DNA of 64,000 nt from Neocallimastix sp. 'constans' (lineage: Eukaryota): NCBI GenBank assembly GCA_050613775.1, contig JBODTK010000150.1, positions 124,001 to 188,000 of the forward strand, given 5' to 3'. Both the position numbers and the translations under genes were made by a program. The notes under the pieces are model-generated. The model had not been told where the DNA came from, did no database searches, and was given only the letters and a program-made list of their open reading frames with translations. Shown in pieces: positions 17,584-46,735 of this stretch. How positions within the stretch are numbered: position 1 is the stretch's first letter; every line of letters starts with the position of its first letter.

Positions 17584-17597
17584 AGTTGTTATTTTTG

Positions 17598-18606: not shown

Positions 18607-18610
18607 TTTG

Positions 18611-19901
18611 TGATGCAGTATTTAAATAAAAAGAGAATATTATCAAGAAATAAAATTAAATTGTTAAAATTAAGATATAAAATAGTTTTATGATCAATAA
18701 CGTTACTAGGTTAATATGTTGAATTATATATTAATAATCCAACAATAATTAATTAATAATAATATAAAAATAATATAAGATAAATAGTTAAGTTATTTAA
18801 ACACTTAATATCTAAGAATATTTTAAATAATAATTTCTTTGAAGGATTTATGAAAATATTTATTTATTGAATTATTAGTATATAATTATTGTAAGTACAA
18901 TAACCTTACAAAGAACATAAAAGATAGATTTTTACATCTTTCTTTTATACTTTGTAAGTTACATAATAATAATATTTAATTATAAGATATTAATAATATA
19001 GTAATATGAATATTAATAAAATATTAAGATAATAACAATATCGATATGTTTAAAATATTTAATATAACTAAATAAATTTAATTTATAATTATATAATTAA
19101 TTTGAATAATTAAAAATAGTAGTTAATATATATGATGTAAACATATATATAAACATAATATAAATAAATACATGTGACGTCATATGTAGATAATTGAAAT
19201 TATTAATATAAATCTTATTTACTAATATTCTCAGAATTATTAGGCCTAAGATAATTCCTTAAATATTAAATAAGAATTTATATTAATTATTAATTATTTA
19301 AATATATATATTATTTATAATTAAATAAATAATATTTGTTAACTATTGAAATGTAAATAACTGAAATTGAGATTTCAATTCAGTTATAATTTCAACATAA
19401 ATATAATAAATAATTAGTTAAATTATATATGTATATTATAATAATAAATAGTAATATAAAAATTATTAAATTTATTTAATTAGTTAATAGCCAATAGGAT
19501 TTAATTTATAGTAAATTAGAAATTAGAAATATAAAAGAAAAATTATTATAATTCTTTAAAAAAAAAGGAGGTTTTTTAATTTAAAAAAAAAAAAATAGAG
19601 ATAAAATTGGTTAAAATAAATATATTTGGGGAATATATTTATTTATCAAAAATTTTAATAGTAATAAGTTAGTTAGAAATAAATAATTAATAAGATCTTT
19701 AATAACATTTTATTATAAAATTTGTATTACGACATAAATAATTTAAATAAATAAATAAAACGACAAAACTATAATTTTTTTTATATTTTGTTTTAATATT
19801 AACGTGTATTGTAATTATATATTTTTATATTAGAATATATTTTTATTTAATACAATCTTGCTAACCACAAAAACATTGATACTTATAAAAATAACGTATC
19901 A
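18611..19901. mobile_element. Solo LTR (unit 2) hosting a nested LTR
   Basis: TGATGCAG...CGTATCA termini, TSD tttg on both sides. Confidence 0.8.
18662..19397. mobile_element. Nested solo LTR, 5-bp-TSD class (inverted copy of the 42061 family)
   Basis: TGTTAAAA...TTTCAACA, TSD taaat (18657-61, 19398-402); reverse complement of 42061-42749. Confidence 0.88.
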
Positions 19902-20933
19902 TTTGTGGTAAAGAATGAATTAATAATCTTTATTTTATTATTAATAATTCTTTACTAAATTGTACTTTCCTATATTCTTCATAACCTAAACCTCATTGTA
20001 AATTTAATTTATTTTGATATAAATTAATTTTAATTTGTAAATAATGTAAATAAATTTTAATTAATCACTTTATTGTTATATTATTAAATATATGTATATA
20101 TTAAAATACAATTGTAAATATTAAAATTATACTTTTAAGATACTAAATTATTAAAAATATTAATTAAATATTATTATAAAAATTATTATAAAATTATTAA
20201 AATTATTAATTAAATATTATTCTAAAAATTATTATAAATTATTAATATTATAAAATTATTAAAATTATTAAATATTATTATAAAAATTTATTTATTATAA
20301 CTATTAAATATTATTATAAAATTATTAAGATTATTAATTAAATTTATTATTAAAAATTATTATTAAAAATTATTACTTATTATAAAAATTATTATTTAAA
20401 TATTATCAAATTTATTAATTAAATATTATAAAAATTTTATTTTATTTTGAAAATAATTACAAGTATTATTTAAAATAATTAAAGATTATTAAATTTATTA
20501 TATTAATCTTTAAAAACAATTTATTTAACTTAAAAATATTAAAGAAAATAGTAAAAACTATTTTCTATATATTTATTTTATAATTATTTTTAATTAAATT
20601 ATATTTGAATATTATATTATTATATTTATAAAAATTAAAACAAAAATGAATTATTGATAAAAAATTAATTCAATAATTCTATAAAATTATTTAAATTATA
20701 AACAATTAATTATACTTTAAATTTATAAAAAAATATAAATATTGTAACAATTTCTTAAAAAAAATTAAATATGTGTACTTTAAATAAAAAAAATTTTTAT
20801 ATTAATAAAAAAAAAATAAATAACTTTTAATAAAGAATTATTTTTTTTTTTATTTAAAATCAAAGCAGGGTAATACCCGTCCCCCCCTGCTTGATTTTAA
20901 ATATCTAAGTGTCAACCCCGAGTCTACCAAAAT

Positions 20934-20951
20934 TGGTGGAGATATCGGGGA
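20934..20951 (+). promoter_or_regulatory. Primer-binding site for tRNA-Ala(TGC)
   Basis: tggtggagatatcgggga is the exact complement of the last 15 nt of the 17512-17583 tRNA plus CCA. Confidence 0.93.
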
Positions 20952-23900
20952 AGGCTTTAATTGATTCATGTAGTAATTTAAGTATAATTACTCAACAATT
21001 TTTAGATAAGCTTCCGTCCGAATATGAACCTATTGATATTAGTCGTGGCAGAATTAGGTTGGCAACTAAGAATGATGATTACTCGGAAGGTTATATCATT
21101 CGGGTGCCAGTAAAGATTAATAATCTTGTATTAATGGTTAATTGTAGAATAGTAGAAAAGGAGGATCCTTTTTACGATATTCTAATTAACTTAAAAACCC
21201 AAATTGATTATAATTTGTTTATCCACCCCATTTTATATAGTTTGTGTCAAATTACTCCTGAGGGAGTAATTGACGTTATTGCACCTATTAATAATGATTA
21301 TGAAGATGAAGAAAAGTTGTTGTGTATGATTAAGGCTTTGGATGAGGATTCCAAAAAGAATGATTTAAAGAAAATTGAAGGATTATCTCCAAAGCAATAT
21401 ATTCATCATGAAATTTTCCTAAATACTTTAAATGAAAAATATAAAGATGAAATAATTAAAATTCTGGAGGAGAACTTAGAAATAGTTGCTACTTCTTCAG
21501 AAGAATTAACACCTTCTGATCTTCCTCCACATAAGATTAATTTAATTCCTGGTGCGAAACCAGTTAAGCAAAGGTGCTATAGATTAGTTAAATTTAAGTC
21601 GGATATACTTAAGGAGGAATTAATTAAATTAATTAATAAGAAATTAATTGAACCTTCTTGTTCCGAATGGTCATCGCCAATAGTGTTAGTACCGAAGAAG
21701 AACGGTAAATGGCGATTATGTATTGATTATCGTAAGGTTAATGATTTAACAGTTAAAGATTCTTATTCATTACCTTACATTGATGAGATATTTGATAGTT
21801 TAGATGGGGCACAGATTTTTACAACAATGGATCTTTACTCTGGTTATCATCAAGTTTTGATGGATGAGGAAAGTGTAGAAATTACCACCTTCACCACAAA
21901 ATTTGGTAACTACCAATTCAAGGTTATGCCTTTTGGTTTAACCGGAGCCCCAGCTACATTTCAAAGGGAAATGAATAGGATTCTTTTCCCATTTATAGGA
22001 AAGTTTGTTTTTAACTTTATAGATGATATTTTAATATACTCTAAGAGTATAAAAGAACACATAAGCCACATTAGGCAAGTGTTGGAAGTATTTCGCCAAC
22101 ACAAATTGAAAATTAACATTGAAAAATGTGCCTTTATGCAGACTGAAGTAGAAGTCTTAGGTCATAAGGCATCAGTGAAAGGTTTAAGTCCCCAGGATAG
22201 CAAAATTAAGGCTATCAAGGAGTGGGTAGCACCTGTTGATGTTCATGAATTACGATCTTTTCTTGGAGCAGTAGGATATTATAGAAACTTTATTGATAAA
22301 TATGCTCAAATCTCTGCTCCTTTATGTAAATTATTAAGAAAGAATGTTAAATATAAATGGAATAATGAACATCAACAAAGTTTTGATCTGTTAAAAGAAA
22401 AGTTAATAAATGCTCCAATTTTAAAATATCCAAGTTTTAATCAAAGGTTTATAATTAGAACGGATGCTTCCTATGAAGGTATTGGAGGAGTATTACTCCA
22501 AGAAGATTTAGAAACCAAAAAGGAACATCCAGTTCATTATATAAGTAGAAGTTTAAGTAAAGCCGAGAAAAATTATGGCATTACTGACTTGGAAGGAGCT
22601 GCATTAATTTATTGTATTACTAAGTTGAAATCTTATATATTAGGAAATCCTAATAAAACAGTAGTAATAACAGACCATAAACCTTTAATCAGTTTCTTTA
22701 AAAATAAGGAACCTAATAATGCTAGGCAAGCAAGATGGTGCTTAACTGTTAGTACCCTTGGTGTTGAAATTCAATATCAAATGGGTAAGAAAAATGTGTT
22801 AGCCGATGCATTATCTAGAATGAAGAAAAGAGCTGATTCTGTGGTATTGGCAACTAAGTTAACTTCAAAGGAAGAAGAAGAGTTGCTTTCAAAAACTATT
22901 AAAGACTTTATAAATGAAAAATTTGTTACGATAGATGGTGAAGATTACTTTGTTGATGGTAATGACTATCGTAAATTAATTACTGATCAAACGGAAAGAG
23001 TAAAACTTATTTTAGAAGCCCATAAGATAGGTCATGAGGGATATTATAAGACTTATCAAAGGCTTCGTAAAAGTTTTTATTGGAATAATATGGTGATGGA
23101 TATTAAAAGAGTGGTGCAAAGTTGTGACAAGTGTCAGTTGAATAGGTCACAACCATATCCAGAACCTACAGAAAATATTCCAACTAAAGTAGAAGGTCCT
23201 TTTATACATTTGGGTTTAGATATTATTGGACCTTTGATTAAAACGAAGAATAATAATCAATATATTATGGTTGTGGTGGATTACTTCACCAAATGGGTTG
23301 AAGCAGAACCCACGGAAAATATAACATCACAGGATGTGATTAAGTTCTTAATTAATGTGTTTGCTCGTCATGGTGTTCCACAGGTAATAACAACTGACAA
23401 TGGTGTTCAGTTCACCTCGGACATGACGAAAATATTTTTAGATCTCTATGATGTATATGTGAAGTTTATTTCCACATATCATCCTGAAAGTAATGGACTT
23501 ACGGAAAACCGTAATAAAGAGATCGGCAAGTTATTGAGGTTGTTGGGTTCTAAGAATAAGGATTGGGATGAAGTTTTACCATCCGCCTTATGGGCTCTTA
23601 GAACTACCAAAAATAAGGTAACAAAACATTCAAGTTTTGAGTTGGTTTATGGTAGGGAGGATCAGCAGCCTTTTGATATTGCTGCTAGACCTACCAAGGA
23701 TATTAATAAGTCATCGGATGAAGTGTTGTTAGAAAAATTTATAAATCATTACCGATGGACTTTAGAAGCAGCCGAAAATGTTAAAAATGCAAATAAGTAT
23801 TGGGCTGCTAGAAGAGAGGAAAAGAATAGTTTGAATGAAGGAAAAAGAATTAGGGAAGGTGATTTAGTTCTAGTTAGAAATTTTTCAAGAACTAAACTAG

Positions 23901-24040
23901 AACCTTATTTTGTTGGTCCTCTTAAAGTTATAAAAAAACAATTTAATACGGTTACCTTGGCTGATCCAAATTCTGGAATTCAAATGAATAGGAATGTTCA
24001 TTTGAAGAATATAGTCAAGTATAACTCAGCTTCGATGTAG
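20948..24040 (+). CDS. pol: Pol (partial protease, RT, RNase H, integrase), 5'-truncated
   Basis: LIDSCSN protease, WSSPIVLV/RLCIDYR/MPFGL/FIDD RT, TDAS RNase H, HHCC and D,D35E integrase, GPY/F-like KLEPYFVGP; PR-RT-RH-IN order is Ty3/Gypsy. Confidence 0.92.
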   Translation, partial: GKALIDSCSNLSIITQQFLDKLPSEYEPIDISRGRIRLATKNDDYSEGYIIRVPVKINNLVLMVNCRIVEKEDPFYDILINLKTQIDYNLFIHPILYSLCQITPEGVIDVIAPINNDYEDEEKLLCMIKALDEDSKKNDLKKIEGLSPKQYIHHEIFLNTLNEKYKDEIIKILEENLEIVATSSEELTPSDLPPHKINLIPGAKPVKQRCYRLVKFKSDILKEELIKLINKKLIEPSCSEWSSPIVLVPKKNGKWRLCIDYRKVNDLTVKDSYSLPYIDEIFDSLDGAQIFTTMDLYSGYHQVLMDEESVEITTFTTKFGNYQFKVMPFGLTGAPATFQREMNRILFPFIGKFVFNFIDDILIYSKSIKEHISHIRQVLEVFRQHKLKINIEKCAFMQTEVEVLGHKASVKGLSPQDSKIKAIKEWVAPVDVHELRSFLGAVGYYRNFIDKYAQISAPLCKLLRKNVKYKWNNEHQQSFDLLKEKLINAPILKYPSFNQRFIIRTDASYEGIGGVLLQEDLETKKEHPVHYISRSLSKAEKNYGITDLEGAALIYCITKLKSYILGNPNKTVVITDHKPLISFFKNKEPNNARQARWCLTVSTLGVEIQYQMGKKNVLADALSRMKKRADSVVLATKLTSKEEEELLSKTIKDFINEKFVTIDGEDYFVDGNDYRKLITDQTERVKLILEAHKIGHEGYYKTYQRLRKSFYWNNMVMDIKRVVQSCDKCQLNRSQPYPEPTENIPTKVEGPFIHLGLDIIGPLIKTKNNNQYIMVVVDYFTKWVEAEPTENITSQDVIKFLINVFARHGVPQVITTDNGVQFTSDMTKIFLDLYDVYVKFISTYHPESNGLTENRNKEIGKLLRLLGSKNKDWDEVLPSALWALRTTKNKVTKHSSFELVYGREDQQPFDIAARPTKDINKSSDEVLLEKFINHYRWTLEAAENVKNANKYWAARREEKNSLNEGKRIREGDLVLVRNFSRTKLEPYFVGPLKVIKKQFNTVTLADPNSGIQMNRNVHLKNIVKYNSASM

Positions 24041-25091
24041 CTTGAGTTTTAGAGGGGGCATCATGGTAAAGAATGAATTAATAATCTTTATTTTATTATT
24101 AATAATTCTTTACTAAATTGTACTTTCCTATATTCTTCATAACCTAAACCTCATTGTAAATTTAATTTATTTTGATATAAATTAATTTTAATTTGTAAAT
24201 AATGTAAATAAATTTTAATTAATCACTTTATTGTTATATTATTAAATATATGTATATATTAAAATACAATTGTAAATATTAAAATTATACTTTTAAGATA
24301 CTAAATTATTAAAAATATTAATTAAATATTATTATAAAAATTATTATAAAATTATTAAAATTATTAATTAAATATTATTCTAAAAATTATTATAAATTAT
24401 TAATATTATAAAATTATTAAAATTATTAAATATTATTATAAAAATTTATTTATTATAACTATTAAATATTATTATAAAATTATTAAGATTATTAATTAAA
24501 TTTATTATTAAAAATTATTATTAAAAATTATTACTTATTATAAAAATTATTATTTAAATATTATCAAATTTATTAATTAAATATTATAAAAATTTTATTT
24601 TATTTTGAAAATAATTACAAGTATTATTTAAAATAATTAAAGATTATTAAATTTATTATATTAATCTTTAAAAACAATTTATTTAACTTAAAAATATCAA
24701 AGAAAATAGTAAAAACTATTTTCTATATATTTATTTTATAATTATTTTTAATTAAATTATATTTGAATATTATATTATTATATTTATAAAAATTAAAACA
24801 AAAATGAATTATTGATATAAAATTAATTCAATAATTCTATAAAATTACTTAAATTATAAACAATTAATTATACTTTAAATTTATAAAAAAATATAAATAT
24901 TGTAACAATTTCTTAAAAAAAATTAAATATGTGTACTTTAAATAAAAAAAATTTTTATATTAATAAAAAAAAAATAAATAACTTTTAATAAAGAATTATT
25001 TTTTTTTTTATTTAAAATCAAAGCAGGGTAATACCCGTCCCCCCCTGCTTGATTTTAAATATCTAAGTGTCAACCCCGAGTCTACCATTTG

Positions 25092-26055
25092 TGGTAAAGA
25101 ATGAATTAATAACCTTTATTTTATTATTAATAATTCTTTACTAAATTGTACTTTCCTATATTCTTGATAACCTAAACTTAATAATAAAATTTAATTTATT
25201 TTGATATAAATTAATTTTAACTTGTAAATAATGTAAATAAATTTTAATTAATTATTTTATTGTTATATTATTAAATATATGTATATTAAAATACAATTGT
25301 AAATATTAAAATTATACTTTTAAGATACTAAATTATTAAAACTATTAATTAAATATTATTATAAAAATTATTATAAAATTATTAAAATTATAAAATTATT
25401 AAAATTATTAAATATTATTATAAAAATTTATATATTATTACTATTAAATATTATTATAAAATTATTAAGATTATTAATTAAATTTATTATTAAAAATTAT
25501 TATTAAAAATTTTTACTTATTATAAAAATTATTATTATCAAATTTATTAATTAAATATTATAAAAATTTTATTTTATTTTGAAAATAATTACAAGTATTA
25601 TTTAAAATAATTAAAGATTATTAAATTTATTATATTAATCTTTAAAAACAATTTATTTAACTTAAAAATATCACGGAAAATAGTAAAAACTATTTTCTAT
25701 ATATTTATTTTATAATTATTTTTAATTAAATTATATTTGAATATTATATTATTATATTTATAAAAATTAAAACAAAAATGAATTATTGATATAAAATTAA
25801 TTCAATAATTCTATAAAATTACTTAAATTATAAACAATTAATTATACTTTAAATTTATAAAAAAATATAAATATTGTAACAATTTCTTAAAAATTAAATG
25901 TGTGTACTTTAAATAATAAAATTTTATATTAATAAAAAAAAAATAAATAACTTTTAATAAAGAATTATTTTTTTTTTATTTAAAATCAAAGCAGGGTAAT
26001 ACCCGTCCCCCCCTGCTTGATTTTAAATATCTAAGTGTCAACCCCGAGTCTACCA
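25092..26055 (+). mobile_element. Solo LTR, family alpha (unit 4)
   Basis: Same sequence family and termini; TSD tttg. Confidence 0.92.
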
Positions 26056-26059
26056 TTTG

Positions 26060-26656
26060 TGGTACGGGACGCCCTGATAACTATGAAATAAGCAATAAAT
26101 TTGAGAATAAAGTTATAAGATTAAATATTTAAATTTTTAAAAAAATAAACAATTATAACCTTAAATTAGATAAAAAGGAATATAAAAAGATGTAAATAAG
26201 AAAGAAAATAATTATGGGAGGAGAGAGAGATCAGAAAGAAAAGAAAGAAAAAAAATATAAATAGGACAAAAATATAAAAAATTTAGTGTAGAATGGAGAT
26301 ATAATAAGAAATAAAAATATATAGTTAGTTAGATTATAATAAAAATGTAGTAATTAAAATAATGTATAATTAAGTAATATAATAAATAAAAAAAAATATT
26401 AATAAAATAATAATAAAAAAATATTTTAATAATAAATAAATAAAAGTTATTAATTTATGTGTTTATTCAATTTAGAATAATTTATCTTAACTAGAGTAGT
26501 GTCAAAAAAGCCCAAGATACAATAACACGTACCAAAAATGGTGGAGAATCCGGGCGTTGACACGTTAGGATAAATTGAAAATAAATTGAATAAAAAAAAA
26601 ATAAAAAAAAAAAAATTATAATAAAAAAAAAATATATAGATAGATATAATTATCAT

Positions 26657-26710
<54 letters not shown>

Positions 26711-27017
26711 ATAATAAAAAAATATATAGATAGATATAAATATCATAATTAAAAAAAAAAAAAAAAATTAATTGTTGGTATTCATTAATACTTAAAAAAA
26801 TATATAAATAATAATAATAATTAGTTATATAGATTTAATAGTAAAGATATATTATAGAGTAAATAAAATTTTAAGAGAATATAAATTTTAGGTATAATTA
26901 TTATATTATAGGCTTATAGGGAGTATAAGCTATAATAAATATTAGATTATAATAAAATTGTATATTGATTAAAAAGAAATTATTCAAATAATATTTTAGT
27001 ATTAAATTTATATAGGA

Positions 27018-27074
<57 letters not shown>

Positions 27075-28904
27075 TAATTATATATATTTAATAGGAAAGG
27101 TATAAAATAAAATAAATAAAATTTTAAGAGAATATAAATTATAGGTATAATTACTATATTATAGGCTTATAGAGATGAGATAAGCTAATAATAATTAATA
27201 GATTATAATAAAATTATATATTGATTAGAAAGGAATTTTTCAAATTATATTCAAATATAAAATTATATACAAATATTATATAAAATAAAATACTATAATT
27301 CGATGGATATGTATATATATATAAAAATAACAAAAAAAAAAAAAATTAGTAATTAAAAAAAAAAATAAAACTAAATAATAATATTTAATCAATTATAATA
27401 GGAATTAAATTATATTAATAATAGAATTACTTGATTAGTATTTATATATATTTATTATATTAAATTTATAATAATTAAATAATTACAAGACATTATAAAA
27501 TTATATAACATTATTAAAAATTACTAACTAAAAATATAACTAATTACAAGTGAATAAAAATTTGAATGAATAATCAAAATGGAATTATCTGAGAATTTAA
27601 ATAAGAAATTAAATCAACTGTGCAAAAAGTGTAACGACTTCAATAAAACCATTATAAAAGAATTTGAAAATTTATCTAATGATATTATAACTATTAATTT
27701 GTATAAAAATTATATATCAGAAATAAAACCTCCTAAATATTCGAAATCTGTAATACGAAATAATAATAAAATTTTTAAAATTTATTATGTTGAGAATTGT
27801 AGAGATTTTGGAAGATTAGAAAAATACTTAAAATTCAATAAGATACAAACCAAAAATAAAATCTCTATACAAGAGGAACAAATTATAATTAATAGAAATA
27901 ATAGTAATTTTAACCTACTTAAAAGATTCAGAAGTTATTATAATTCGGATATAATATTAATAATAATAAAAGAAAGGAAAATATTATTTGTGTGAAAGAA
28001 GTCGAGAATAAACCAAGTGTAGTTGATAAAAGAACATCTTATATACAGGGCGATAACGAAATTAAGGAGCAAGAACCAAGTCATAGAAATGAGAGTCTAC
28101 AAAGAGTTTGTGGAGAAGAAGAAAAGAAAGGCGATAATGTTAAGAAAGAAAAATTAATAGTGATGAAGATTAAACCTGTTAATAAAGAAATAAAAGAAGA
28201 AAATACTAATTCAACTTTGATTAAGTCAAGAATAAAAAAAATAAAAATTAATTCTAAGAAACATAATAATATAATTATTAATAAAAATAAAGCAAAGAGT
28301 ATTAAAATTATTGTTCTAAAGGAAAATTTGAGTAAAACTTGTAATAATAGAAAGGATACTAAAACTTTAGAACGTAACTATAAAATTAGAAAGAAGAAAA
28401 AGACCCATATTTAAGTAAATTGAGACTTCAAAGGATGAAGTCTAAATTTAGGGGGGAAGTCATGGTACGGGACGCCCTGATAACTATGAAATAAGCAATA
28501 AATTTGAGAATAAAGTTATAAGATTAAATATTTAAATTTTTAAGAAATAAACAATTATAACCTTAAATTAGATAAAAAAGAATATAAAAAGATGTAAATA
28601 AGAAAATAATTATAAAGGGAGAGAGAGATCAGAATGAAAAGAATATAAATAGAACAAAAATATAAAAAAATGTAGTGTAGAATGGAGATATAATAAGAAA
28701 TAAAAATATATAGTTAGTTAGATTATAATAAAAATGTAGTAATTAAAATAATGTATAATTAAGTAATATAATAAATAAAAAAAAATTAATAAAATAATAA
28801 TAAATAAATAAAAGTTATTAATTTATGTGTTTATTCAATTTAGAATAATTTATCTTAACTAGAGTAGTGTCAAAAAAAAGCCCAAGGTACAATAACACGT
28901 ACCA
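26060..28904 (+). mobile_element. Non-autonomous LTR retrotransposon (TRIM/LARD-like) (unit 5)
   Basis: LTRs 26060-26534 and 28463-28904 (TGGTACG...CGTACCA), PBS tggtggagaatccgggcg at 26539, PPT aggggggaag 28450-28459, TSD tttg; no pol. Confidence 0.9.
27579..28414 (+). pseudogene. Two overlapping ORFs inside the non-autonomous element; possible degenerate gag-like remnant
   Basis: 138-aa and 140-aa K/N/E-rich ORFs in different frames; no motif I can recognise. Confidence 0.3.
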
Positions 28905-28908
28905 TTTG

Positions 28909-29400
28909 TGATACGGTACCACCATAAATACCATAATTTAGTAAAATTTAGGTTACTGAAATCTTATTGGTTAATAATAATTTAGTAATAATATATATAG
29001 TTAGTAAATAATAATAGTTTAAGGAAGGGTTCTTTTATTAATATTAATTTAGTTTATTAATTTAACCTATAAACATGTTTATTAGTATAGTTTAGTGTAG
29101 TTTTATATTTAGTTTACATTAATAATATGAGAGATTTTAGTAATTAATTATATTTTATTGAATGATTTAATTATATTTTAACTAATTAACAACTATTTAT
29201 ATTGATGATGTATTTTTACTGATGAATGATAATAAATAAATAAACTAAATAAACTAAATATTAAAGTGTGAATATTATTATTGTGTGTATTATTCTATAT
29301 AATATTAGAATATATTATTTTGTCAATTATTCCCTACTGTTATCGTCCAAATAAAATAAAATAAATATTGATATTGATGTTTAATAAAAATATCGTATCA
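28909..29400. mobile_element. Solo LTR (unit 6), related to 45150-45617
   Basis: TGATACG...CGTATCA inverted termini; TSD tttg. Confidence 0.85.
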
Positions 29401-29408
29401 TTTGTGTG

Positions 29409-30241
29409 TGTAAAGAATTATAATTATTTTTCAAAATAATTATTATTCTTTATTAAAAAATTAATATTTAAAGTTTATTATTTTATAAAATTTTATGAAT
29501 AATTTTATTAATTATGTCACATAGTAATTATTAATTAATGTTATTGTTTTAAAATTAAATTAAATTATCAATAATTAATATATTAAATTATAATAATGTA
29601 TTATTGTATTAAAATAATGTTAAATTCTATTTAATTAAGAAAATTAAATTTTATTAAAATGATAATTTCATTTAATCAAGAAATAATTAAATTATATTAT
29701 TTCTTGGACTTTTAATTAAGAAAATTAAAAGAATTAATTATTTAATTATACTTGTGATTAAATATTAATAAAATTAATATATAATTAGTTAATAAGTTTT
29801 CTCCCTTATTCGGGTTTTCTTATTAACTAAAGATTGATGTAATTAAACACCAATCGAGATCTATCTAGTTTTTTCTTCTAATCTTTTTCTAGATAGAGAT
29901 AATTTTTCAAGATTAGAAATCAAATTAATATAAATAGGGCTCTTGATTCTTCTAAAAATAATCAAGAGTTATTATTATAAGAAATTATAATAATTAACAC
30001 AAATATTTTAAAATTACTTCTAATAAAAAATTTTTATAATAAAATAATTTCTAAAATTCTCTTAACCTACTTTTAGTGTTGTTTATTATAATCTTATAAT
30101 AAACTCTAAGTTTTTAAATTTTCGTTTTCAATTTTTATATTATACTTTTTAATTTTATCTCAATTAATAATATTTTTTATTATTAATTGTAGAAAGAATT
30201 AATTATTAATATAATTAAATATTTTTAATTAATTCTTTACA
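29409..30241. mobile_element. Solo LTR (unit 7), TGTAA..TTACA family with 5-bp TSD
   Basis: TGTAAAGAATT...AATTCTTTACA; TSD gtgtg (29404-08, 30242-46); internal similarity to 40489 and 49346. Confidence 0.85.
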
Positions 30242-30244
30242 GTG

Positions 30245-33308: not shown

Positions 33309-33362
<54 letters not shown>

Positions 33363-34627
33363 TTTTAATTAATGATAAATATTAAAATAATAAGCAAATT
33401 TTTTTTTTTGTAGTACAAATTTTTAATTTTTTTTAAATAAGAATAAATTTTATAAATAAAATTTTTTTTATTAATAATTCTAAATAATAAATTGTAATTT
33501 TTTTTATGTTTATCCGTTTATTTTTTTTTTTAATATATACATGTACAATATATATATATATAGAATATATAAAATTAGATTATTATTATTATTTTTCAAA
33601 TAAGTGTATTATTTTTATGATTTTATATAATTAAATTTTTTTTTTTTATTGAAATTTTCATAATTGAAATTTTTTTTTTTTTTTGTGTGTGTTAAATTTT
33701 CTATTATTCGTTATATAATTAATTAAATTTTAATTAAAAAGAAAAATATAAATAAGCTGTCTTACAACTCTCTACGCGGGATAGTTGAACACCCACACAT
33801 AATACTTTATTGTTTTGATCTTGTTGATACTGGGAAGGATACGTTATTATCTTCTTTATTACTAACAATAAGTTAGCCAAATTAAAAAGAATTTAATATT
33901 GCTACCTTCTTTTTATTAAGTTTCTTAATAATTAACAATCGACATTATCAACTTATCAATAAAGAGCTAAGGGGACTTATTGTAAGAAGGGTTAACAAGC
34001 TATATATTTGATGGTTCAACACTATATAGTTTGGCTTGTATTTTAACTTTTTATTTAATATTTCATTAAATGTTATAACAAAGAATTAATAGAATAATAA
34101 ATATATACAAAAAAGAAATAAAAATAAAAATAAATATATATTATTATTATTATTTAAGTATTTATACAATTTGTTTTATGTTATATTAATTATTTTAATA
34201 AAGGAAATAAATATATTAAATAAAATTAAATAAAGAAGTTATTACTACAAATAAATAAAAAAAAAATTAAGATATACATATTCTGTGTATTAATGCTTAA
34301 GAGAATATAATAAATATTAAAATTCATAATAAAAAGCTTCAGATTTTCAAATTGCGTTTTTGAGTCTGAATTAATTTTTTTTTTTGTTTCAGATTTTCGG
34401 AGGGTGTTTTCGAGTCTGAATTAATTCATTAGATTTTCAGAGAGAGATTCTGAGTCTGAATTATTATTGGAATAAAGAATTGGATTGTCAGAGGGTTTTC
34501 TGAGTCCATAATTATATTATTATAAAACAAAGATAAATTTATTTTTTTTGTTATTAAATATATTTTTAAAGTAAACATAATTTTTAAATTGGATATCATA
34601 GCATTAATACCATTTTTAAATTTTCAA

Positions 34628-35521
34628 ATGGCTGAAAATAAAATCAATTTTAAAGAATTAAAAAAGGAATTAAAAGATATCGAGAAAATTTCAAAGGAAA
34701 ATCTCGATATCAAATCTTGGGAATCAGAAATCCGATTATGGATAAAACTTGAGGAAGTTACTGATCCCAAAAAGATTTTTACCGCCTGCTTACTCACGTC
34801 TACTGGAGAGCCTCGCGAAGTTATCCAGGATTTAATTGAAAGTTACAGTACCGATTCTGAATCAGAAAGTGAGGACGAAGAAGAAGAAGAATCTGATTCA
34901 GAAGAAAAGAAAAAAGATGAATATCCTTCCTTAAAGGAAATTGTAGAAGCACTAGAAACTTTTTATGGTCTTAAAGAAGACCAGAATATGTTACTTCGTG
35001 AGCTCCGTGCCTTAAGAATTAAAAGAAATGAGCGAGTAAAAGACTTTAATACTCGTTTCCGATCCATATATTTGAAATTAGATAAGAAAAGAAAGAAGCG
35101 AGTCAGTGTTCTCGATTATATTGATGCTCTTAGGAACAATGAAGAAGCTTGGAAAAGGGTCTCCCTTAAGGATGACATTTCTTTAAATCGGGCGTTTGAC
35201 ATTGCCGAAAAAGTTGATAGAGTAATGAATTTGAGACCCTCAAAAGAGTACTCAACTGAAATTGTCAACCCAAGAATAAATATCAGGAATAATTATCAAA
35301 ACAACAGAAAAGTAGTAAGGGAGAATTATGAAGTTAGAACCCCAAAAAGAAATAAAGATTACGATTTGGAGGACTTAACAAAAAAAATGAAAAATCTTAC
35401 CATTAAAGCCTGTTTTTATTGTAGCGATCCAGGACATTTGCAGTATAATTGTCCTAAGTTAAATGCAATTATTCAAGAAAATAAGAAACGGTTATATAGT
35501 GGAAAATCTTTAAACCACTAA
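34628..35521 (+). CDS. gag: Gag of element A
   Basis: CCHC zinc knuckle CFYCSDPGHLQYNC; homologous to 57001-57939; ATG at 34628 preferred over the upstream TTG. Confidence 0.9.
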   Translation: MAENKINFKELKKELKDIEKISKENLDIKSWESEIRLWIKLEEVTDPKKIFTACLLTSTGEPREVIQDLIESYSTDSESESEDEEEEESDSEEKKKDEYPSLKEIVEALETFYGLKEDQNMLLRELRALRIKRNERVKDFNTRFRSIYLKLDKKRKKRVSVLDYIDALRNNEEAWKRVSLKDDISLNRAFDIAEKVDRVMNLRPSKEYSTEIVNPRINIRNNYQNNRKVVRENYEVRTPKRNKDYDLEDLTKKMKNLTIKACFYCSDPGHLQYNCPKLNAIIQENKKRLYSGKSLNH

Positions 35522-35561
35522 AAGGGAGAGGAAGCACTCCCTATAAAAATAAAATAGCTTC
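35509..35561 (+). promoter_or_regulatory. -1 programmed ribosomal frameshift signal (U UUA AAC plus H-type pseudoknot)
   Basis: Slippery heptamer in the gag frame, stem AGGGAG/CTCCCT, loop GAAGC pairing with downstream GCTTC; the -1 frame is open. Confidence 0.85.
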
Positions 35562-36050
35562 ATTACAATACAAATCCATTCCTATTAGTACAAATGATTA
35601 TAATAAGGAAGAAAAAGAAGATGCTTCCTATACTAATGAAACTCACAAAGAATCCGATAATGAGAATGATGTAGAATTTATAGTTAGTGCGACAAAAAGG
35701 AAGTTGACGACTAACGATGAAACTAGTGAAAATAATGAAAAGAGACAACGTAAAAGTCTCAAAGATAATCCTACCCCTATAACAACTCCTGCAATAAGAA
35801 AGATAAAAGAGAAAGAAATAGAAAATAGAATAATTGTTAAAAATAAAAATCAACTACATCCTTCGATAATGGCGCAGCCTAATATAAATATTGAGAAAGC
35901 CAAAGAAAAACAAATTCGAAATAAAGAAAGAGCTAACTTTGGAAATAACAAGGGAAAAGGGAAGGAAAGGGAGGATAATATTACTATAAGAGAAAAGCAA
36001 AGTCCGGATTCTTCAAAACAAAGAAATAGCATCAGTACACTAGTGATAAA

Positions 36051-39000
36051 ATGCATCAACGATTAAATAAATTAATTGATAATGAAAAAGATAAAATTAT
36101 TAAAACAAAACAAATCAATGAAATGGAAGTTATTGAAGTTCCTGAAAAGCTTAATGACGAAGGTCATGAGAATATTACATTACAGAAGCTCATAGATTTT
36201 CAAGAGCCTAAAGAAAAAGCAACAATTAGTAGAACGCTTAGGAACATCAAGATGTGTAAGGATCAGGAAGAATATGATGTTTTACAAGATTTGAATGAAA
36301 CCAAGTGTAATATTAGTTTCGGTCAGCTCCTCAATGTTTCTCCAAAAGTCAGAAGTCAAGTAAGTCAAGGATTAAAATTAGAAAAGCCTGAAAAGAAAAT
36401 AATAGGTGCATTAAACAATACTATTGCTGCTGCTACTTTGGTAAATAATATTGATCACTCTTATATTAGCAAAAGTAAGGAAACCTCAGAAGAAGATATT
36501 GCCATGGTTGATGTAACAGTAGATGAAATTCCTGGTAAAGCACTAATTGATTCTTGTAGCAATCTCAATGTTATCACAAAAAAATTTTATGAGAAATTAC
36601 CTGGAAATTATGAAGAAGTAGGTATTAGTCGTGGAAGGATACGTTTAGCGACTAAGAATGATGAGTATTCGGAAGGAATCATTGTACGAATACCTGTTAA
36701 GATTAATGATTATAAAATGATAGTAGATTTTCGTATAATTGATGATGATAACCCATTTTATGATTTGTTGATTAATTTTCAAACTCAAGTAGAACACAAT
36801 CTTTTTATCCATCCTATAAGATATAGTTTATGTCAATTTAATTCTCAAGGACTAATCGACGTTATAGCTCCTATTAATAATAATTCCCAAGAAGAAGAAA
36901 AATTAGTATGTATAGTAAGGAAAATACTTGAAGATGAAGACACAACTAATGAATTAAAGAAACTTGAAGGTCTATCTCCGCAAGAGTATATCCATGATGA
37001 AAAATTTTTAGCAAGTCTTTGTAAAGATTATAAAGATGTAATAGTAAAATTACTTGAAGAAAACTTGGACATTATAGCGACATCTTCTGAAGAATTAACA
37101 CCGTCAGACTTGGCCCGTCATAAAATTAACTTGAAAGCGAACGCAAAACCTGTTAAACAAAGATGTTACAGAGTAACCAAATTTAAATCGGATATTATTA
37201 AAGAAGAACTAATTAAACTTATTAAGAAAAAGCTAGTTGTACCATCTTATTCAGAATGGTCTTCACCTGTTGTTGTGGTCCCAAAGGCTAATGGAAAATG
37301 GAGATTGTGTGTGGACTACCGCAAGGTGAATGATCTAACCGAAAAAGACTCTTATGCCCTTCAATATATTGACGAGATATTTGACAGTCTAGATGGTGCC
37401 AAAATCTTTACTACTATGGATCTATACTCAGGTTACCATCAAATCCTAATGGACGAAGAAAGTGTTGAAATAACCAGTTTTACAACCAAATTTGGCAACT
37501 ACCAATTCAAAGTTATGCCTTTCGGATTAACTGGAGCTCCGGCTACCTTCCAACGGGAAATGAATAGAATTTTATTTCCTTTAATCGGAAAATGTGTTTT
37601 CAACTTTATTGATGATATACTTATATATTCAAAAACTGTCGAAGAACATATCCAACACATAAAGCAGGTATTAGCAATCTTCAAGGAACATAAATTAAAA
37701 ATTAATATTGAAAAATGTCACTTTATGCAAACGGAAGTTGAAGTTCTTGGTCACAAGATTTCTACTAAGGGTCTTAGTCCTCAAAATAGTAAAATTGAAG
37801 CAATTAAAGCCTGGAAAGAACCCACGAATATACATGAGTTAAGATCATTCTTAGGTGCTGTAGGATATTATAGGAACTTTATAAATGAATATGCTCAAAC
37901 CTCAGCTCCTCTTTGTAAGCTATTAAGAAAAGGCGTAAAATATAAATGGAATAATGAACAAAAACAAAGTTTTACCAAATTAAAAGAAAAATTAATTAAT
38001 GCTCCTATTTTAAAATATCCTGATTTTTCCAAAGAATTCATTATTCGAACAGATGCATCATATGAAGGTATTGGTGGAGTTTTATTGCAGAAAGACGAAT
38101 CGGAAATAGAACACCCGATTCATTTCATTAGCCGTAGCTTAACCAAAGCAGAAAAGAATTATGGAATAACCGATTTGGAAGGAACGGCTTTATATTATTG
38201 TATTACTAAATTAAAACCTTATATTATGGGAAGCCCCTTTAGAACCATAGTTTTTACAGATCACAAACCTCTACTAGGTTTATTTAATAATAAGGAACCG
38301 AATAATGCACGACAAACAAGATGGTGTTTGACTGCAAGTATGCTAAAAGTGGATATTCGCTATGAGCAAGGTAAAAAGAATGTAGTAGCCGACGCTTTAT
38401 CTAGAATGAAGAACGATAAAGAACAAAAGGTATTAGCTATAAAAACGAATAAAGATGATGAAAATGATTCACTTTCTAAAGTAATTAAAGAATTTATTGA
38501 AGAAAAATTTACAAAGATTGATGGTATAGATTATTTTATAGATGGAAATAATTATAGAAAACTTGTTACCGAAACAAATGAAAAACTAAAATTAATTCTC
38601 GAAGCACATCATGTTGGCCATGAAGGTTATTATAAAACATATCAAAGACTTAGAAAAAGTTACTACTGGAATGATATGGTCAACGATATAAAACGGATAA
38701 TTTCAAAATGCGAAAAATGTCAGTTAAATCGCCCTCAGCCATATCCAGAACCAACCGAAAACATTCCAACAGAAGTTGAAGGCCCTTTTACTCATCTTGG
38801 ACTTGATATTATTGGTCCCTTAATAAAGACTGGTAATAAAAACCAATATATCATTGTTGCGGTGGATTATTTCACAAAGTGGGTGGAGGCTGAACCTACT
38901 GAGAATATTATATCTAAGGACATCATTAAGTTTTTAATAAATGTTTTCGCTAGACATGGAGTTCCTCAAGTCATTACAACGGATAATGGCGTTCAATTCA

Positions 39001-39626
39001 CATCGGATATGACTAAAATATTCCTGGACTTATATGATGTTTACGTAAAATTTACCACTACCTATCACCCAGAAAGTAATGGATTGGTTGAAAATAGGAA
39101 TAAAGAAATTAGTAAATTATTGAGATTACTTGGTGAAGAAAATAAAGACTGGGATGAAGTATTACCTTCAGCCTTGTGGGCCCTTAGAACTACAAAGAAT
39201 TCTGTAACCAAACATTCTAGCTTCGAATTAGTTTATGGTCGTGAGGATCAACAGCCTTTCGACATTGCTGCTAGACCTACACAAGGAGTGAATAAATCTT
39301 CAGATGAAATTCTTTTAGAAAAATTTATCTCACATTATAGGTGGACCATGGAAGCAGCTGAAAATGTAAAGAACGCAAGTAAATATTGGGCCAATCGAAG
39401 GGAAGAAAAAAATAGCATGAAAAATTCCAAAAACATAAGAATCGGTGATTTAGTTCTTGTTCGAAATTTTAGTCGTTCTAAATTAGAACCTTATTTTGTC
39501 GGTCTTTTAAAAGTAATAAAAAAACAATATAATACCGTAACACTTGCGGACCCAAATACTATGATTCAAATGAATCGTAATGTTCATTTGAAAAATATAG
39601 TAAAGTATAACTCAGCTATAGATTAG
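36051..39626 (+). CDS. pol: Pol of element A (PR-RT-RH-IN); N-terminal part 35509-36066 is in another frame
   Basis: Complete Ty3/Gypsy motifs; one frame break near 36030-36066. Confidence 0.92.
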   Translation: MHQRLNKLIDNEKDKIIKTKQINEMEVIEVPEKLNDEGHENITLQKLIDFQEPKEKATISRTLRNIKMCKDQEEYDVLQDLNETKCNISFGQLLNVSPKVRSQVSQGLKLEKPEKKIIGALNNTIAAATLVNNIDHSYISKSKETSEEDIAMVDVTVDEIPGKALIDSCSNLNVITKKFYEKLPGNYEEVGISRGRIRLATKNDEYSEGIIVRIPVKINDYKMIVDFRIIDDDNPFYDLLINFQTQVEHNLFIHPIRYSLCQFNSQGLIDVIAPINNNSQEEEKLVCIVRKILEDEDTTNELKKLEGLSPQEYIHDEKFLASLCKDYKDVIVKLLEENLDIIATSSEELTPSDLARHKINLKANAKPVKQRCYRVTKFKSDIIKEELIKLIKKKLVVPSYSEWSSPVVVVPKANGKWRLCVDYRKVNDLTEKDSYALQYIDEIFDSLDGAKIFTTMDLYSGYHQILMDEESVEITSFTTKFGNYQFKVMPFGLTGAPATFQREMNRILFPLIGKCVFNFIDDILIYSKTVEEHIQHIKQVLAIFKEHKLKINIEKCHFMQTEVEVLGHKISTKGLSPQNSKIEAIKAWKEPTNIHELRSFLGAVGYYRNFINEYAQTSAPLCKLLRKGVKYKWNNEQKQSFTKLKEKLINAPILKYPDFSKEFIIRTDASYEGIGGVLLQKDESEIEHPIHFISRSLTKAEKNYGITDLEGTALYYCITKLKPYIMGSPFRTIVFTDHKPLLGLFNNKEPNNARQTRWCLTASMLKVDIRYEQGKKNVVADALSRMKNDKEQKVLAIKTNKDDENDSLSKVIKEFIEEKFTKIDGIDYFIDGNNYRKLVTETNEKLKLILEAHHVGHEGYYKTYQRLRKSYYWNDMVNDIKRIISKCEKCQLNRPQPYPEPTENIPTEVEGPFTHLGLDIIGPLIKTGNKNQYIIVAVDYFTKWVEAEPTENIISKDIIKFLINVFARHGVPQVITTDNGVQFTSDMTKIFLDLYDVYVKFTTTYHPESNGLVENRNKEISKLLRLLGEENKDWDEVLPSALWALRTTKNSVTKHSSFELVYGREDQQPFDIAARPTQGVNKSSDEILLEKFISHYRWTMEAAENVKNASKYWANRREEKNSMKNSKNIRIGDLVLVRNFSRSKLEPYFVGLLKVIKKQYNTVTLADPNTMIQMNRNVHLKNIVKYNSAID

Positions 39627-40488
39627 CTTGAGTCTTAGTGGGGGCATCTTGGTAAAGAACGAACATATAATGGATTATTAATTAGAATTTCAACTTACTT
39701 TAGAATCCATTATATTATTCTTTACTTAATATTACTTTACTATATTTTCTATACTAAAATATTTTCTAAATATATTTTTTTTTATATTTTTATTAAAAGT
39801 TTCTAAAATATTATCAATAATTTTATATTTTTATTATTAATATCAATATCTATAATTTAACCTTAAATTTTATTATTTTATTAAAGTGTTTATTATCAAT
39901 ATTAATATTTTATTTTTATTTTCAAATATATTATTATATTATTATTATATTGTATCAATATTAAACTTGTATTCTTTTTAGTATTTTATTTTATTTTTGA
40001 ATTGATTATTTTATATTTTTATTCCCCACAAATAAAATCAAATCTTAATTGATTAATAATAAATATTAAATATATTATAGTTTTAAAATTTATTTTATAT
40101 AAAATATAAGAATATTATATTAACATTCTTGATTAAAATAACTTTATTTTTCTGTAAAATCTTTTTAAATTTTGTTTGTTACTTTTCGTATATATTAAAT
40201 AATTTAGTTTTAGTATATGAAAAATAATATAAAATTATGTAAACAAAATTTATTAAAATAAAAATACTTATGAATTAGTTAATTTAAATTAATATAAAAT
40301 TTTAAGTAATTAGTAATAGTAAATATTTTTTTTTAAATATGATAATAAAATGTAGAAAGGCTTTACATATTTATTTTTTTTCAAAAAGTATAAATAAGTG
40401 AAGTTTTTCAATAATTAAAATGTAGACAGAAAAATATTGAAAATAAATAATTAAATAAAAAATTTAATAAAACCCGAACCATAACATG

Positions 40489-42005
40489 TGTAAGAATCTA
40501 TAATTATTTGTTAGCAAATAATTATATTTTCTTAGTTTGTTAAGATAATAACTGAATTTCAATTCAATTTCAATTTCAATAATTCAGTTATTTAAATTTC
40601 AATATTAATGAATAATAATATATAATAATTATTATTAAATTAACTTTATTAAAATATTTAGGAATTAGTCTAGGCCAACTAATTGACTAAATATTATTTA
40701 CATATTGAAATTAACATATATTAAATAATGTAAACACGTGATTGTCATATTAAATTAATTTCTACATATTATATTTTAATTATAAAATATAATATTTAGC
40801 TATATTAGATTCTTTTATTTATATTAAATATTTATATAATTATCTTATTTTATATTATCAATATCAAACTTATATTAATACTATTACATATTCATATTAA
40901 TAATTAATATTTTAATAATTAATTATTTTATATAAATACATGTTTAAATCTTTTGATTAATCCTTTGTAGGATTATTGTAATTTAAATTATAGTAATAAT
41001 TATATAAAATAATAATGTAATAAAATATTATTAAGATTAAATAAAAATTATATTTTAATTAAAAATTTATTTATAAAATTTACTAATAACAATATGTTTT
41101 AAATAAGAGTAAAATTAAATTATTAATTAATTACTATAATTTGGCATCTTGACCTAATCGTTAAGACCAAATTATCTAAAAACTTTAACATAGTTAAGTT
41201 ATTATAACTATAACTTTATTTAATTACATATAATATTTATTAAATTTATTTAATTTAATTTTAAATATTCATTAATTTAACAAAATTTATTTAATTAATT
41301 TTAAATAATATATTTACAATATGTTAAATTCTCTACTGTAACTAATGTATTTTGTATTGTATTTTATTCTGTATTTTATAATGTATTCTGTATTTTATTA
41401 ACTATTTAATTTTATATTTTTAATATAAGGATAAATTATATGATCGAAATATCTTTTATTATTTTATTCTTTTATTTTCGATCATTAAATTGGAAAATCG
41501 GTTAATTAAGATTTTTTCCAATTACTTTTTAGAAGTAATCGGTTTTACTTAATTAATGCGATGATCGATATGGATAGAATATCGATCGAAAACTTATCTA
41601 GGTTTTTCTATTTAATCTTTTCCTAGATAAGAGATTTGTTAAGATTAGAAAACCCTTTCTTATTTAACCTTATTTTCATAAAAAAAATATAAATAAGGCT
41701 CTTGAGTTCTCTTTGAGAAATCAAGAGTTATTATTATAAAAAACATAGTTATAATAGTAACAATTTTATATTTTTAACTTTAATAAATTAATAAAAATAT
41801 TTTATTCAAAAACATATTTTTAAAATCAATTTATACAAACAATTCTTCTCTTACTTTTGTGTTATTATTATAATTAATTTTATAATAAACTCTACTCTAA
41901 AGGTAAAAAAATTTTATTTTATTTTATTTTCTCAACTTAATGAATTAGTCGTTAAGTTGTAGTTAATAATTCTATTTTGAGTTAGTTCTTAATAGAATTA
42001 TTACA
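40489..42005. mobile_element. Solo LTR (unit 10), TGTAA..TTACA family, hosting a nested LTR
   Basis: Strong similarity to 49346-50303; right TSD ttttg. Confidence 0.85.
40538..41190. mobile_element. Nested solo LTR, 5-bp-TSD class
   Basis: TGTTAAGA...TTTAACA; TSD tagtt; near-copy of 43497-44156. Confidence 0.88.
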
Positions 42006-42060
42006 TTTTGATAGATAACAAAATTATTAAATTAAAATAAATAATAAAGAACAAATTCTT

Positions 42061-42749
42061 TGTTGAAATTATAACTGAATTGAAATCTCAATTTCAGTTA
42101 TTCACATTTCAATATACATTTAATTAATAATTAATATAAATTCTTATTTAATATTTAAAGAATTATCTTAGGCCTAATAATTCTGAGAATATTAGTAAAT
42201 AAGATTTATATTAATAATTTCAATTATCTACATATGACGTCACATGTATTTATTTATATTATGTTTATATATATGTTTATATCATATATATTAATTACTA
42301 TTTTTAATTATTCAAATTAATTATACAAATTAAATTTATTTAATTATATTAAATATTTTAAATATATCGATATTGTTATTATTTTAATATTTTATTAATA
42401 TTCATTTTACTATATTATTATTATCTTATAATTAAATACTATTATTATGTAACTTACAAAGTATAAAAGAAAGATGTAAAAATCTATCTTTTATGTTCTT
42501 TGTAAGGTTATTGTATTTACAATAATTATATACTAATAAATCAATAAATAAATATTTTCATAAATCCTTCAAAGAAATTATTATTTAAAATATTCTTAGA
42601 TATTAAGTGTTTAAATAACTTAACTATTTATCTTATATTATTTTTATATTATTATTAATTAATTATTGTTGGATTATTAATATATAATTCAACATATTAA
42701 CCTAGTAACGCTATTAATCATAAAACTATTTCATATCTTAATTTTAACA
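42061..42749. mobile_element. Nested solo LTR, 5-bp-TSD class
   Basis: TGTTGAAA...TTTTAACA; TSD ttctt. Confidence 0.88.
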
Positions 42750-42756
42750 TTCTTGT

Positions 42757-43491
42757 TGTTGAAATTACAACTGAATTAAATTTCAATTTCAATTAATTTC
42801 AATTAAAATTATTAAAAACAAAATAATTAATAAAAATTTATAATTCATTAATTATTCTTTAAATTTTATTTATTTTATAATATTATAAGTTATTTGATCA
42901 TCTTAGGACCAGCTTAGGCCTACTGATTCTAATGATATCATATTAAACTTAAATATTATTAATAAATAAAATATTTATTAACATGAATCATTTGGTCATG
43001 TCATCCTTGATTCATAAATTAATGTTTATGTATTAATTTATGTTATATTGATTTAATTAATTATTAATTATTAATTACTATATTAAATATTTAAATTTAA
43101 TATTATATTATATATATTAGCTAATATATTAGATTAAAAAATATAATTTATTTATATTAAACATATTCTTATACTAAATATTATTATTATCAACTTTATA
43201 TTATTATTATCAATATTCTCAAACCTACAAAGTATAAAAAGAAAATTCAAATTTATCTTTTTGTTCTTTGTAAGGTTATAGTTAACCTATTATAATATAA
43301 CTATATATTTTTATTAATAAATAAAAATTTTTATCATATCAAACCAATTATTAGTTTTAATTAAGTGTTAAATTAACAAATTTAACTTTATAACTCTTTT
43401 ATTTTAGTAATTTACTTATATCTATATAGTTATATTATATAGATATATCAACCTGATTCCTCGTTAAATTCAATCTGTTTATTTTTTAACA
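42757..43491. mobile_element. Nested solo LTR, 5-bp-TSD class (diverged relative of 42061)
   Basis: TGTTGAAA...TTTTAACA; TSD cttgt. Confidence 0.85.
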
Positions 43492-43496
43492 CTTGT

Positions 43497-44156
43497 TGTT
43501 AAGATAATAACTGAATTTCAATTCAATTTCAATTTCGATAATTCAGTTATTTGAATTTCAATATTAATAAATAATAATAATATAATAATTATTATTAAAT
43601 TAACTTTATTAAAATATTTAGGAATTAGTCTAGGCCAACTAATTACTAAATATTATTAATATATTGAATTTAATATATATTAAATAATGTAAACACGTGA
43701 TTGTCATATTAAATTAATTTCTACATATTATATTTTAATCATAAAATATAATATTTAGCAATATTTGATTCTTATATTTTATTTATATTAAATATTTATA
43801 TTATTATCTAACTTTATATTATCAATATCAAACTTATATTAATATTATTTACATATTCATATTAATGATTAATATTTTAATAATTAATTATTTTATATAA
43901 ATACATGTTTAAATTCTTTTGATTAATCCTTTGTAGGATTATTGTAATTTAAATTATAGTAATAATTATATAAAATAATAATGTAATAAAATATTATTAA
44001 AATTAAATAAAATTTATATTTTAAAGAAAAACTTAATTATAAAATTTACTAATAACAATATGTATTAAATAAGAATAAAATTAAATTATTAATTAATTAC
44101 TATAATTTGGCATCTTGACCTAATCGTTAAGACCAAATTATCTAAAAACTTTGACA
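43497..44156. mobile_element. Nested solo LTR, 5-bp-TSD class
   Basis: Near-copy of 40538-41190; TSD cttgt. Confidence 0.88.
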
Positions 44157-45149
44157 CTTGTCTAACTTAACCCAAAAATTAATTCATTCTAAAAAAAAAA
44201 AATTAAATCCATATTAAAGAAAATTTAATTAAATAAAAATAATTAAAATAAAATAATAATAATTAATTAATCATTAATAATTTTAATTAAAAACTAAAAT
44301 AAATTAATAAATAATATTTTTCTAAGACTACAAATAAACAAAATAATAAACAAATTTAATAAATTATAAATAACAAATAAACAAACTTATAAACATCTCA
44401 AAATTAAAATTAAATAGTTAAATAATTTTTAAGTTACTTTTATTTAAAATAATGATTATTTTATTCATTTTATAACTCAACTTTTATAAACAAATTGTAA
44501 TTAAATAACATTTTAAAACTCATCTTTATTAATATTTTAATTGTAAATATTGTTTAATTTAATAATAAATTATTCTTTATTTCTCTTTTATTAATTTTAT
44601 TATTTTTAATGTAAATAGTTTAAAATCAAAGAAAAATATAAAAACATGTAAATATTTCTTATAAATTATTCTTTATTATTAATTATTTAATAAATTATTA
44701 TAGATATTTTATTAGTTTTAATAATCAAAAAAATATGATTATTAATTATTTAATAAATTATTATAGATATTTTATTAGTTTTTAATAATCAATTTTTATG
44801 ATTATTAATTATTTTGATAAATTATTATATATTTTATTAGTTATTAATAATCAATTTTATTATTAAAATTTAAAATAAATTAGTATAAATAATAAATATT
44901 TCATTTTATTATTTTATTAGTTTTAATAATTATTTTATTAATTTAAACAAAATTAATTATTAAATAAATAAAGATTAATAGTAAAATAAAAATAAATTTT
45001 TTTAATAAAACATTTTTGTGTTTAATAATAAAACATATTTATTTTTTTTTTAAATTTCTTAAATCAATTTTATTCAGTATTTATCCTTTTATTCACTTCT
45101 ACAAAATTTAATTTTTGTAGATTAAGAATATTAGGTATAAATCATTTTT

Positions 45150-45617: not shown

Positions 45618-45621
45618 TTTT

Positions 45622-45992: not shown

Positions 45993-45996
45993 TTTT

Positions 45997-46731: not shown

Positions 46732-46735
46732 TGTG

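Follow-up and report, generated by a model that had tools for sequence, protein, structure and literature searches.

What fixes the place at which a small group of related solo LTRs, here called N, lies within three unrelated host LTRs upstream of a single tRNA gene, and does this place amount to a second targeting site beside the one used by the hosts themselves? The window analysed here, 64 kb of DNA in all, is very AT-rich, with a GC content per 2 kb of 9-32% (about 12-14% in LTR regions), and its sequence is also contained in faecal metagenomes. It holds one true tRNA gene, which we regard as the anchor of a long stack of LTR units:

17512..17583, minus strand: tRNA-Ala(TGC) gene, the inferred anchor (ARAGORN; Rfam RF00005, 69.9 bits)
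17584-17597: 14-bp upstream flank of tRNA-Ala(TGC) (from the stack replay)
17598..46731, plus strand: stack of 14 LTR units, A, B, C, D, E, F, G, I, H, host 2, host 3, F2, J and K (junction scan, TSD replay, self-BLAST)

On the 3′ side of the tRNA gene, toward a gene for a folliculin-interacting protein (FNIP, 11412-15810) that ends about 1.7 kb away, no LTRs were found. A second ARAGORN call at 32206-32280 was rejected as an anchor, because it is the head of a SINE-like insert of about 450 bp (31833-32280, minus strand) within the 5′ LTR of element H. This insert has a tRNA-derived head including CCA, a short repeat tail and a TSD of about 16 bp at a T-run, which accounts for the second "tRNA", and there is no LTR upstream of it.

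The 14 units would each have inserted 12-18 bp from the tRNA's 5′ end, pushing the older ones outward. In a replay of this process, units were inserted from the far end onward, each at its own fitted distance, into one tRNA flank. With this single flank, 13 of the 14 right-hand TSDs are predicted and the window is reproduced across 17598-46731, at distances of 13, 13, 13, 12, 14, 16, 16 and 18 bp and then 14 bp six times; the right TSD of the deepest unit, K, is not predicted, and insertion at any CA-TTTG-TG junction would yield an identical TSD. Three of the units are hosts to N copies:

18611..19901, plus strand: host B, solo LTR of 550 bp when empty, 4-bp TSD TTTG, 14 bp from the tRNA
40489..42005, plus strand: host 2, solo LTR of 859 bp when empty, 5-bp TSD TTTTG, 14 bp from the tRNA, same family as G and O
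42009..45144, plus strand: host 3, solo LTR of 1037 bp when empty, TSD TTTT, 12 bp from the tRNA, about 67% alike to family A

The final two letters of today's 14-bp flank are the first TG of host 3, which fixes the distance of this host at 12 bp. The flanks of 14, 14 and 12 bp that a first-pass annotation of this DNA had assigned to the hosts are reconstructions, but well constrained and, on the replay, sound; for the N copies they give inferred distances of 65, 63, 64, 66 and 66 bp. The same annotation took the position of the N copies as independent support for each host having once adjoined the tRNA; this is partly circular, and the adjacency itself rests on the TSD replay.

The stack is not a simple calendar. 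The LTRs of element E differ by 10 substitutions in 439 positions plus 7 gaps and those of H by 2 differences in 837, although E lies nearer to the tRNA than H, which requires either that the stack has undergone internal recombination or that its order departs from strict chronology. E itself (26060-28904) is non-autonomous and possibly a recombinant. Beyond K (46732-51230), the chain of TSDs no longer fits the tRNA-Ala flank: the units A', L, O and P join other flanks, and for the deeper units O and P no tRNA is seen in the window at 12-18 bp. This break hints at an exchange between stacks by recombination, or at the loss of a tRNA.

Within the three hosts lie the following copies:

18662..19397, minus strand (reversed): N1a solo LTR, TSD TAAAT, offset 51 in host B, inferred 65 bp from the tRNA
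40538..41190, plus strand: N2a solo LTR, TSD TAGTT, offset 49 in host 2, inferred 63 bp from the tRNA
42061..42749, plus strand: N1b solo LTR, TSD TTCTT, offset 52 in host 3, inferred 64 bp from the tRNA
42757..43491, plus strand: N3 solo LTR, TSD CTTGT, offset 54 in host 3, inferred 66 bp from the tRNA
43497..44156, plus strand: N2b solo LTR, TSD CTTGT, offset 54 in host 3, inferred 66 bp from the tRNA

Starts, TSDs and offsets all agree on recheck with the first-pass annotation, as do the occurrence of both orientations (N1a being the reversed copy) and the presence of three copies (N1b, N3 and N2b) in one host. Every one of the five has a perfect 5-bp TSD and TGTT...AACA/GACA ends, that is, the TG...CA termini with short inverted repeat and the fixed-length TSD by which an LTR is recognized. 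They form one related group of three subfamilies, 62-97% alike: over aligned columns, N1a and N1b are 97% identical, N2a and N2b 96%, and the remaining pairs 62-66%. A profile built from the five matches exactly those five in the 64 kb and no sixth, and within G, K, O, E5, H5 and Q, segments of the form TG..CA were judged to be chance noise of AT-rich DNA. All five lie at offsets of 49-54 bp, and under uniform insertion the probability that three hosts share one 6-bp window by chance is about 1.1-1.6e-5.

Public sequence contigs were compared over 18540-19540, using contigs from 4 of the 22 runs listed. Among them are contigs of an empty host B, in which 18656 is joined to 19398 (depth 3530 in run X2 and 1713 in X3); N1a thus is a later insertion and does not belong to the host family. 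N1 sequence and the empty host are both present in independent public runs. Many contigs from these 4 of 22 runs carry N1 in this interval, yet none has a flank long enough for measuring a distance to a tRNA. One contig over the N1 core reaches a depth of 6151, where the lowest contigs listed for X2 have 32-50; depth here does not equal copy number, and this only hints that N1 is a high-copy family.

Is the position set by something in the hosts? Over their first 100 bp, they show no similarity above that of shuffled sequence (an equally high score is reached by 343-372 of 500 shuffles), with TG alone common to all three, which bears out the earlier description of the hosts as unrelated. The N target sites have no motif in common and their TSDs differ; a shared target sequence was rejected on these grounds. 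When the position is counted from the tRNA rather than from the start of the host, its spread narrows from 5 bp (49-54) to 3 bp (63-66). Against random stack flanks this narrowing is not significant (p about 0.16), and although the true assignment does better than the other permutations, there are only 3 in all. Three of the five inserts lie in one host, which has a p of 0.016-0.046 if all LTR starts are taken as equally available. The 3′ LTRs of elements C, E, H, Q and R contain no N copy (0 of 5, too few to count), the profile search detects none in K, J, F2, A', L, O or P, which lie deeper in the stack or beyond it, and native tRNA flank likewise yielded none. The lack of shared host sequence, the clumping and the absence from 3′ LTRs and deeper units together favour a ruler that starts at the tRNA, short of proof, and the Pol III complex is the likeliest such ruler, ahead of the host LTR end. 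The first-pass annotation had proposed a separate integrase that measures from the Pol III complex independently of target sequence. The sequence independence and the use of the site by a distinct LTR group hold up, and a separate integrase is likely; the Pol III ruler is not established by the narrowing found here.

Three other accounts have to be weighed. N may measure from the U3 end of the host LTR, by way of an end-bound protein or an LTR-phased nucleosome, in which case it would target retrotransposons and the tRNA would be irrelevant. That all five copies lie in LTRs agrees with this account, the offsets of 49-54 are nearly as tight as the distances of 63-66 and the data do not separate them, and the LTR ages of E and H that are out of stack order also speak for it. 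Against it stand the host starts, which share nothing beyond TG in 100 bp, the absence of N from the five 3′ LTRs and the seven deeper units, and the clumping of three copies in one host. We regard this account as unlikely.

Alternatively, N could be an ordinary Ty1-like Copia element with a broad, nucleosome-periodic upstream window, of which the five copies happen to occupy the first hotspot; this would retain tRNA targeting and drop only the sharp single site. The termini, the 5-bp TSD and the two orientations would fit Ty1-type elements, and Copia elements exist in this lineage. Furthermore, insertions of Ty1, Ty2 and Ty4 are most frequent on the first nucleosome upstream (PMC10347736). 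However, on each of three nucleosomes Ty1 has a pair of hotspots separated by about 70 bp (PMC3545840), whereas all five N copies share a single 4-bp window; copies at greater distances would have been detectable and there were none, though this is a sample of five from one locus. A broad window of this kind appears rather improbable to us.

Folding of 21 LTR ends revealed a terminal hairpin in host 2 (z -5.8) that ends at the N2a insertion, no significant one in hosts B and 3 (z +0.4 and -0.3), and strong hairpins without an insert at A, C5′, G, H5′, O and F2; with one hairpin among three hosts and six hairpin-bearing starts empty, targeting to hairpins was rejected. That a local DNA feature near LTR position 50 (a hairpin base, as the place of N2a at the base of the host 2 hairpin might suggest, or an A/T-rich bend), or else chance or an assembly artefact, explains the pattern is most improbable, since two of the hosts lack the hairpin, the TSDs differ and are perfect in all five copies, and N1 and the empty host recur in independent runs. 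A shared motif or hairpin had been named beforehand as the explanation that would dispense with the tRNA; the tests came out against both.

To which class N belongs has to be judged from solo LTRs, as a full-length N was not found; in a Ty1/copia element, pol would have its integrase upstream of the reverse transcriptase. A purine-rich, PPT-like loose end adjoins the TGTTG end in one run (X14; 15 contigs, mixed consensus, agreement 0.61), and no primer-binding site was seen among the 24 loose ends listed, with 1458 more beyond that listing. The fit of the ends, the 5-bp TSD and the purine-rich loose end is consistent with N being an LTR retrotransposon with the TGTTG end as its U3. A TRE5-like non-LTR element, with an APE-RT ORF2 and a variable TSD, was rejected in view of the LTR ends and the constant 5-bp TSD. 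The termini of N, TGTT...AACA/GACA, we take to be Ty1-type, and together with the Copia proteins of this lineage they make it somewhat probable that N is a Copia element. Copia elements are indeed present in this fungal lineage: the window has a Copia gag fragment (51209-51970), with no link to any N LTR, that shares 58% identity with a protein of Orpinomyces. In a search for relatives, a 21-nt pattern of the N U3 end was found in 1 viral, 46 metagenome and 30 prokaryote-genome stretches, of which 0 of 77 match the N profile at E<=1e-3; the first 47 were also compared by BLAST, and all 77 were rejected as chance. Protein-based searches for further loci returned only 8 distant Gypsy loci at 27-43% identity.

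The site closer to the tRNA is used by elements of another kind, of which the following carry more than a solo LTR or bear on the TSD length:

19906..25087, plus strand: element C, a Gypsy-order pol fragment without gag, LTRs with 3 differences in 1024, primer-binding site matching tRNA-Ala, 14 bp from the tRNA
29409..30241, plus strand: solo LTR G, 5-bp TSD GTGTG, 18 bp from the tRNA
31096..40486, plus strand: element H, full-length Gypsy, gag-like ORF 34628-35521, pol 36051-39626, 16 bp from the tRNA
20930-20955, 26535-26560, 32397-32423 and 59262-59289: primer sites of the set C, E, H and Q

The pol of H and of Q contains the Pfam domains RVT_1, RT_RNaseH, Integrase_H2C2 and rve in that order, as in Ty3/gypsy elements, and no match to a chromodomain was found in either by Pfam. 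Relatives close to the Gypsy pol of the window include Orpinomyces models; together with the Orpinomyces match of the Copia gag fragment and the occurrence in faecal metagenomes, this points to an anaerobic gut fungus as the source of the DNA. The primer sites of the Gypsy elements C, H and Q correspond to the 3′ end of the anchor tRNA-Ala(TGC) itself, with a variant in E, and in C the primer site leads directly into pol, gag being absent.

A third LTR family, TGTAA...TTACA (29409-30241, 40489-42005 and 49346-50303), has 5-bp TSDs and occurs in the near window, 14 or 18 bp from the tRNA; the 64 kb contain none of its internal sequence, and LTR O, the relative of host 2 and G, has TTTTG on both sides. 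As host 2 (TTTTG, 14 bp) and G (GTGTG, 18 bp) lie close to the tRNA, a 5-bp TSD is no marker of the far class, and the earlier statement that LTRs with 5-bp TSDs always land 63-66 bp upstream does not hold. The same statement had two element classes partition one safe harbour; no fewer than three integrase types seem to act at this tRNA locus.

Two classes sharing the upstream region of one tRNA gene are already known from yeast and Dictyostelium (see also PMC7175516). According to PMC5911963, Ty1, Ty2 and Ty4 use a window of about 1 kb and Ty3 inserts 1-4 bp from the start site, DGLT-A is found at 13-33 bp, TRE5 at 40-54 bp and NLTR-B at 39-64 bp. N has in common with the yeast elements that it is an LTR element inserted in both orientations beyond a start-site class, with two LTR classes per locus (PMC5911963). 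It differs from Ty1, with its window periodicity of about 80 bp (PMC3545840), in occupying one 4-bp window at one locus, its Copia identity being putative, as is any contact with Pol III, which in Ty1-type targeting runs from the integrase to the subunit AC40/Rpc40; Ty2 and Ty4 share the nucleosome hotspot pattern of Ty1 (PMC10347736). As a precedent, TRE5-A inserts at 47+/-3 bp, just past TFIIIB, and builds tandem arrays where a tRNA gene is already occupied (PMC5391098). N resembles TRE5-A and the Polysphondylium NLTR-B in its narrow fixed distance, in stacking at occupied genes and in its coexistence with a start-site Gypsy element (there DGLT-A), whereas these are non-LTR elements, TRE5-A being orientation-specific; N is bounded by LTR ends and a TSD of constant 5-bp length, occurs in both orientations, and is located about 18 bp beyond the TRE5-A position. 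Ty3, DGLT-A (13-18 bp from the tRNA in 18 of 20 cases; PMC6101501), Tca8 and Tj1 resemble the host class rather than N, in the order reverse transcriptase-RNase H-integrase, the missing chromodomain match and a distance of 12-18 bp from the mature tRNA; here, in contrast, 14 units of many families are stacked at one gene with mostly 4-bp TSDs, and C, E and H all have their U3 toward the tRNA.

The table of tRNA-targeting elements in PMC5911963 contains no LTR element whose window is both narrow and close to -65. In the literature searched, which included few subscription papers and no Repbase, neither a narrow LTR window at -65 nor tRNA-upstream targeting in anaerobic gut fungi was found; tRNA-upstream targeting has been described in ascomycete yeasts and social amoebae. 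A tRNA-targeted retroelement has been defined by several copies lying at comparable distances from tRNA genes (PMC5006619), against which stand here five N copies at one gene, with reconstructed distances.

Taken together, a second, non-random and sequence-independent site for a distinct LTR group is well supported. We further consider it likely that a separate N integrase targets a site about 65 bp (63-66) upstream of the tRNA, while the Gypsy elements take the start-site window at 12-18 bp. Like Ty3 and DGLT-A, Gypsy-type intasomes would dock at the transcription start, displacing older units outward; the N intasome (probably of Copia type) would be tethered to the same Pol III machinery and cut at about -65 in whichever LTR then fronts the gene, just past the zone covered by TFIIIB and at the border of the first nucleosome upstream. 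N elements would later collapse to solo LTRs, and later arrivals would move both them and their hosts outward, leaving a record of insertions, with which the three of five inserts in host 3 fit as the mark of that host's period beside the tRNA.

The pattern is known from one tRNA locus and three hosts, and until other loci are examined it is a one-locus pattern. As a broader and tentative reading, an LTR lineage of gut fungi, likely Copia, may place every copy in a window of a few bases about 65 bp upstream of genes for tRNAs, by an LTR integrase of TRE5-like precision and beside at least two start-site classes with 4- and 5-bp TSDs, such that three integrase types would share one Pol III safe harbour with a readable chronological record. 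If true, this would point to another origin, or to deep conservation, of the tRNA-upstream strategy, as anaerobic gut fungi are an early-diverging lineage. If confirmed, N would serve as a natural ruler, graded in base pairs, with which to place the upstream edge of the Pol III complex or of the first nucleosome; it would also be a test of tethering versus chromatin in setting integration sites, and a candidate tool for site-specific integration in fungi without one.

At the far end of the window, a Copia gag-protease fragment (51227-52006) lies between copies of an 18-bp inverted repeat, and the related Gypsy LTRs P and Q adjoin the repeat copies in mirror orientation. From there, a second stack faces the opposite way (52007-64000, minus strand), with the full-length element Q (TSD AAAA, LTRs 99.9% identical) and then R; it is presumably anchored on a tRNA past the end of the window. 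Finally, a strong hairpin of 45-75 nt (z -3 to -10) opens the LTRs of A, C, G, H, F2, O, R, N1b and host 2, which belong to many unrelated families, and these hairpins are possibly an RNA or plus-strand signal.
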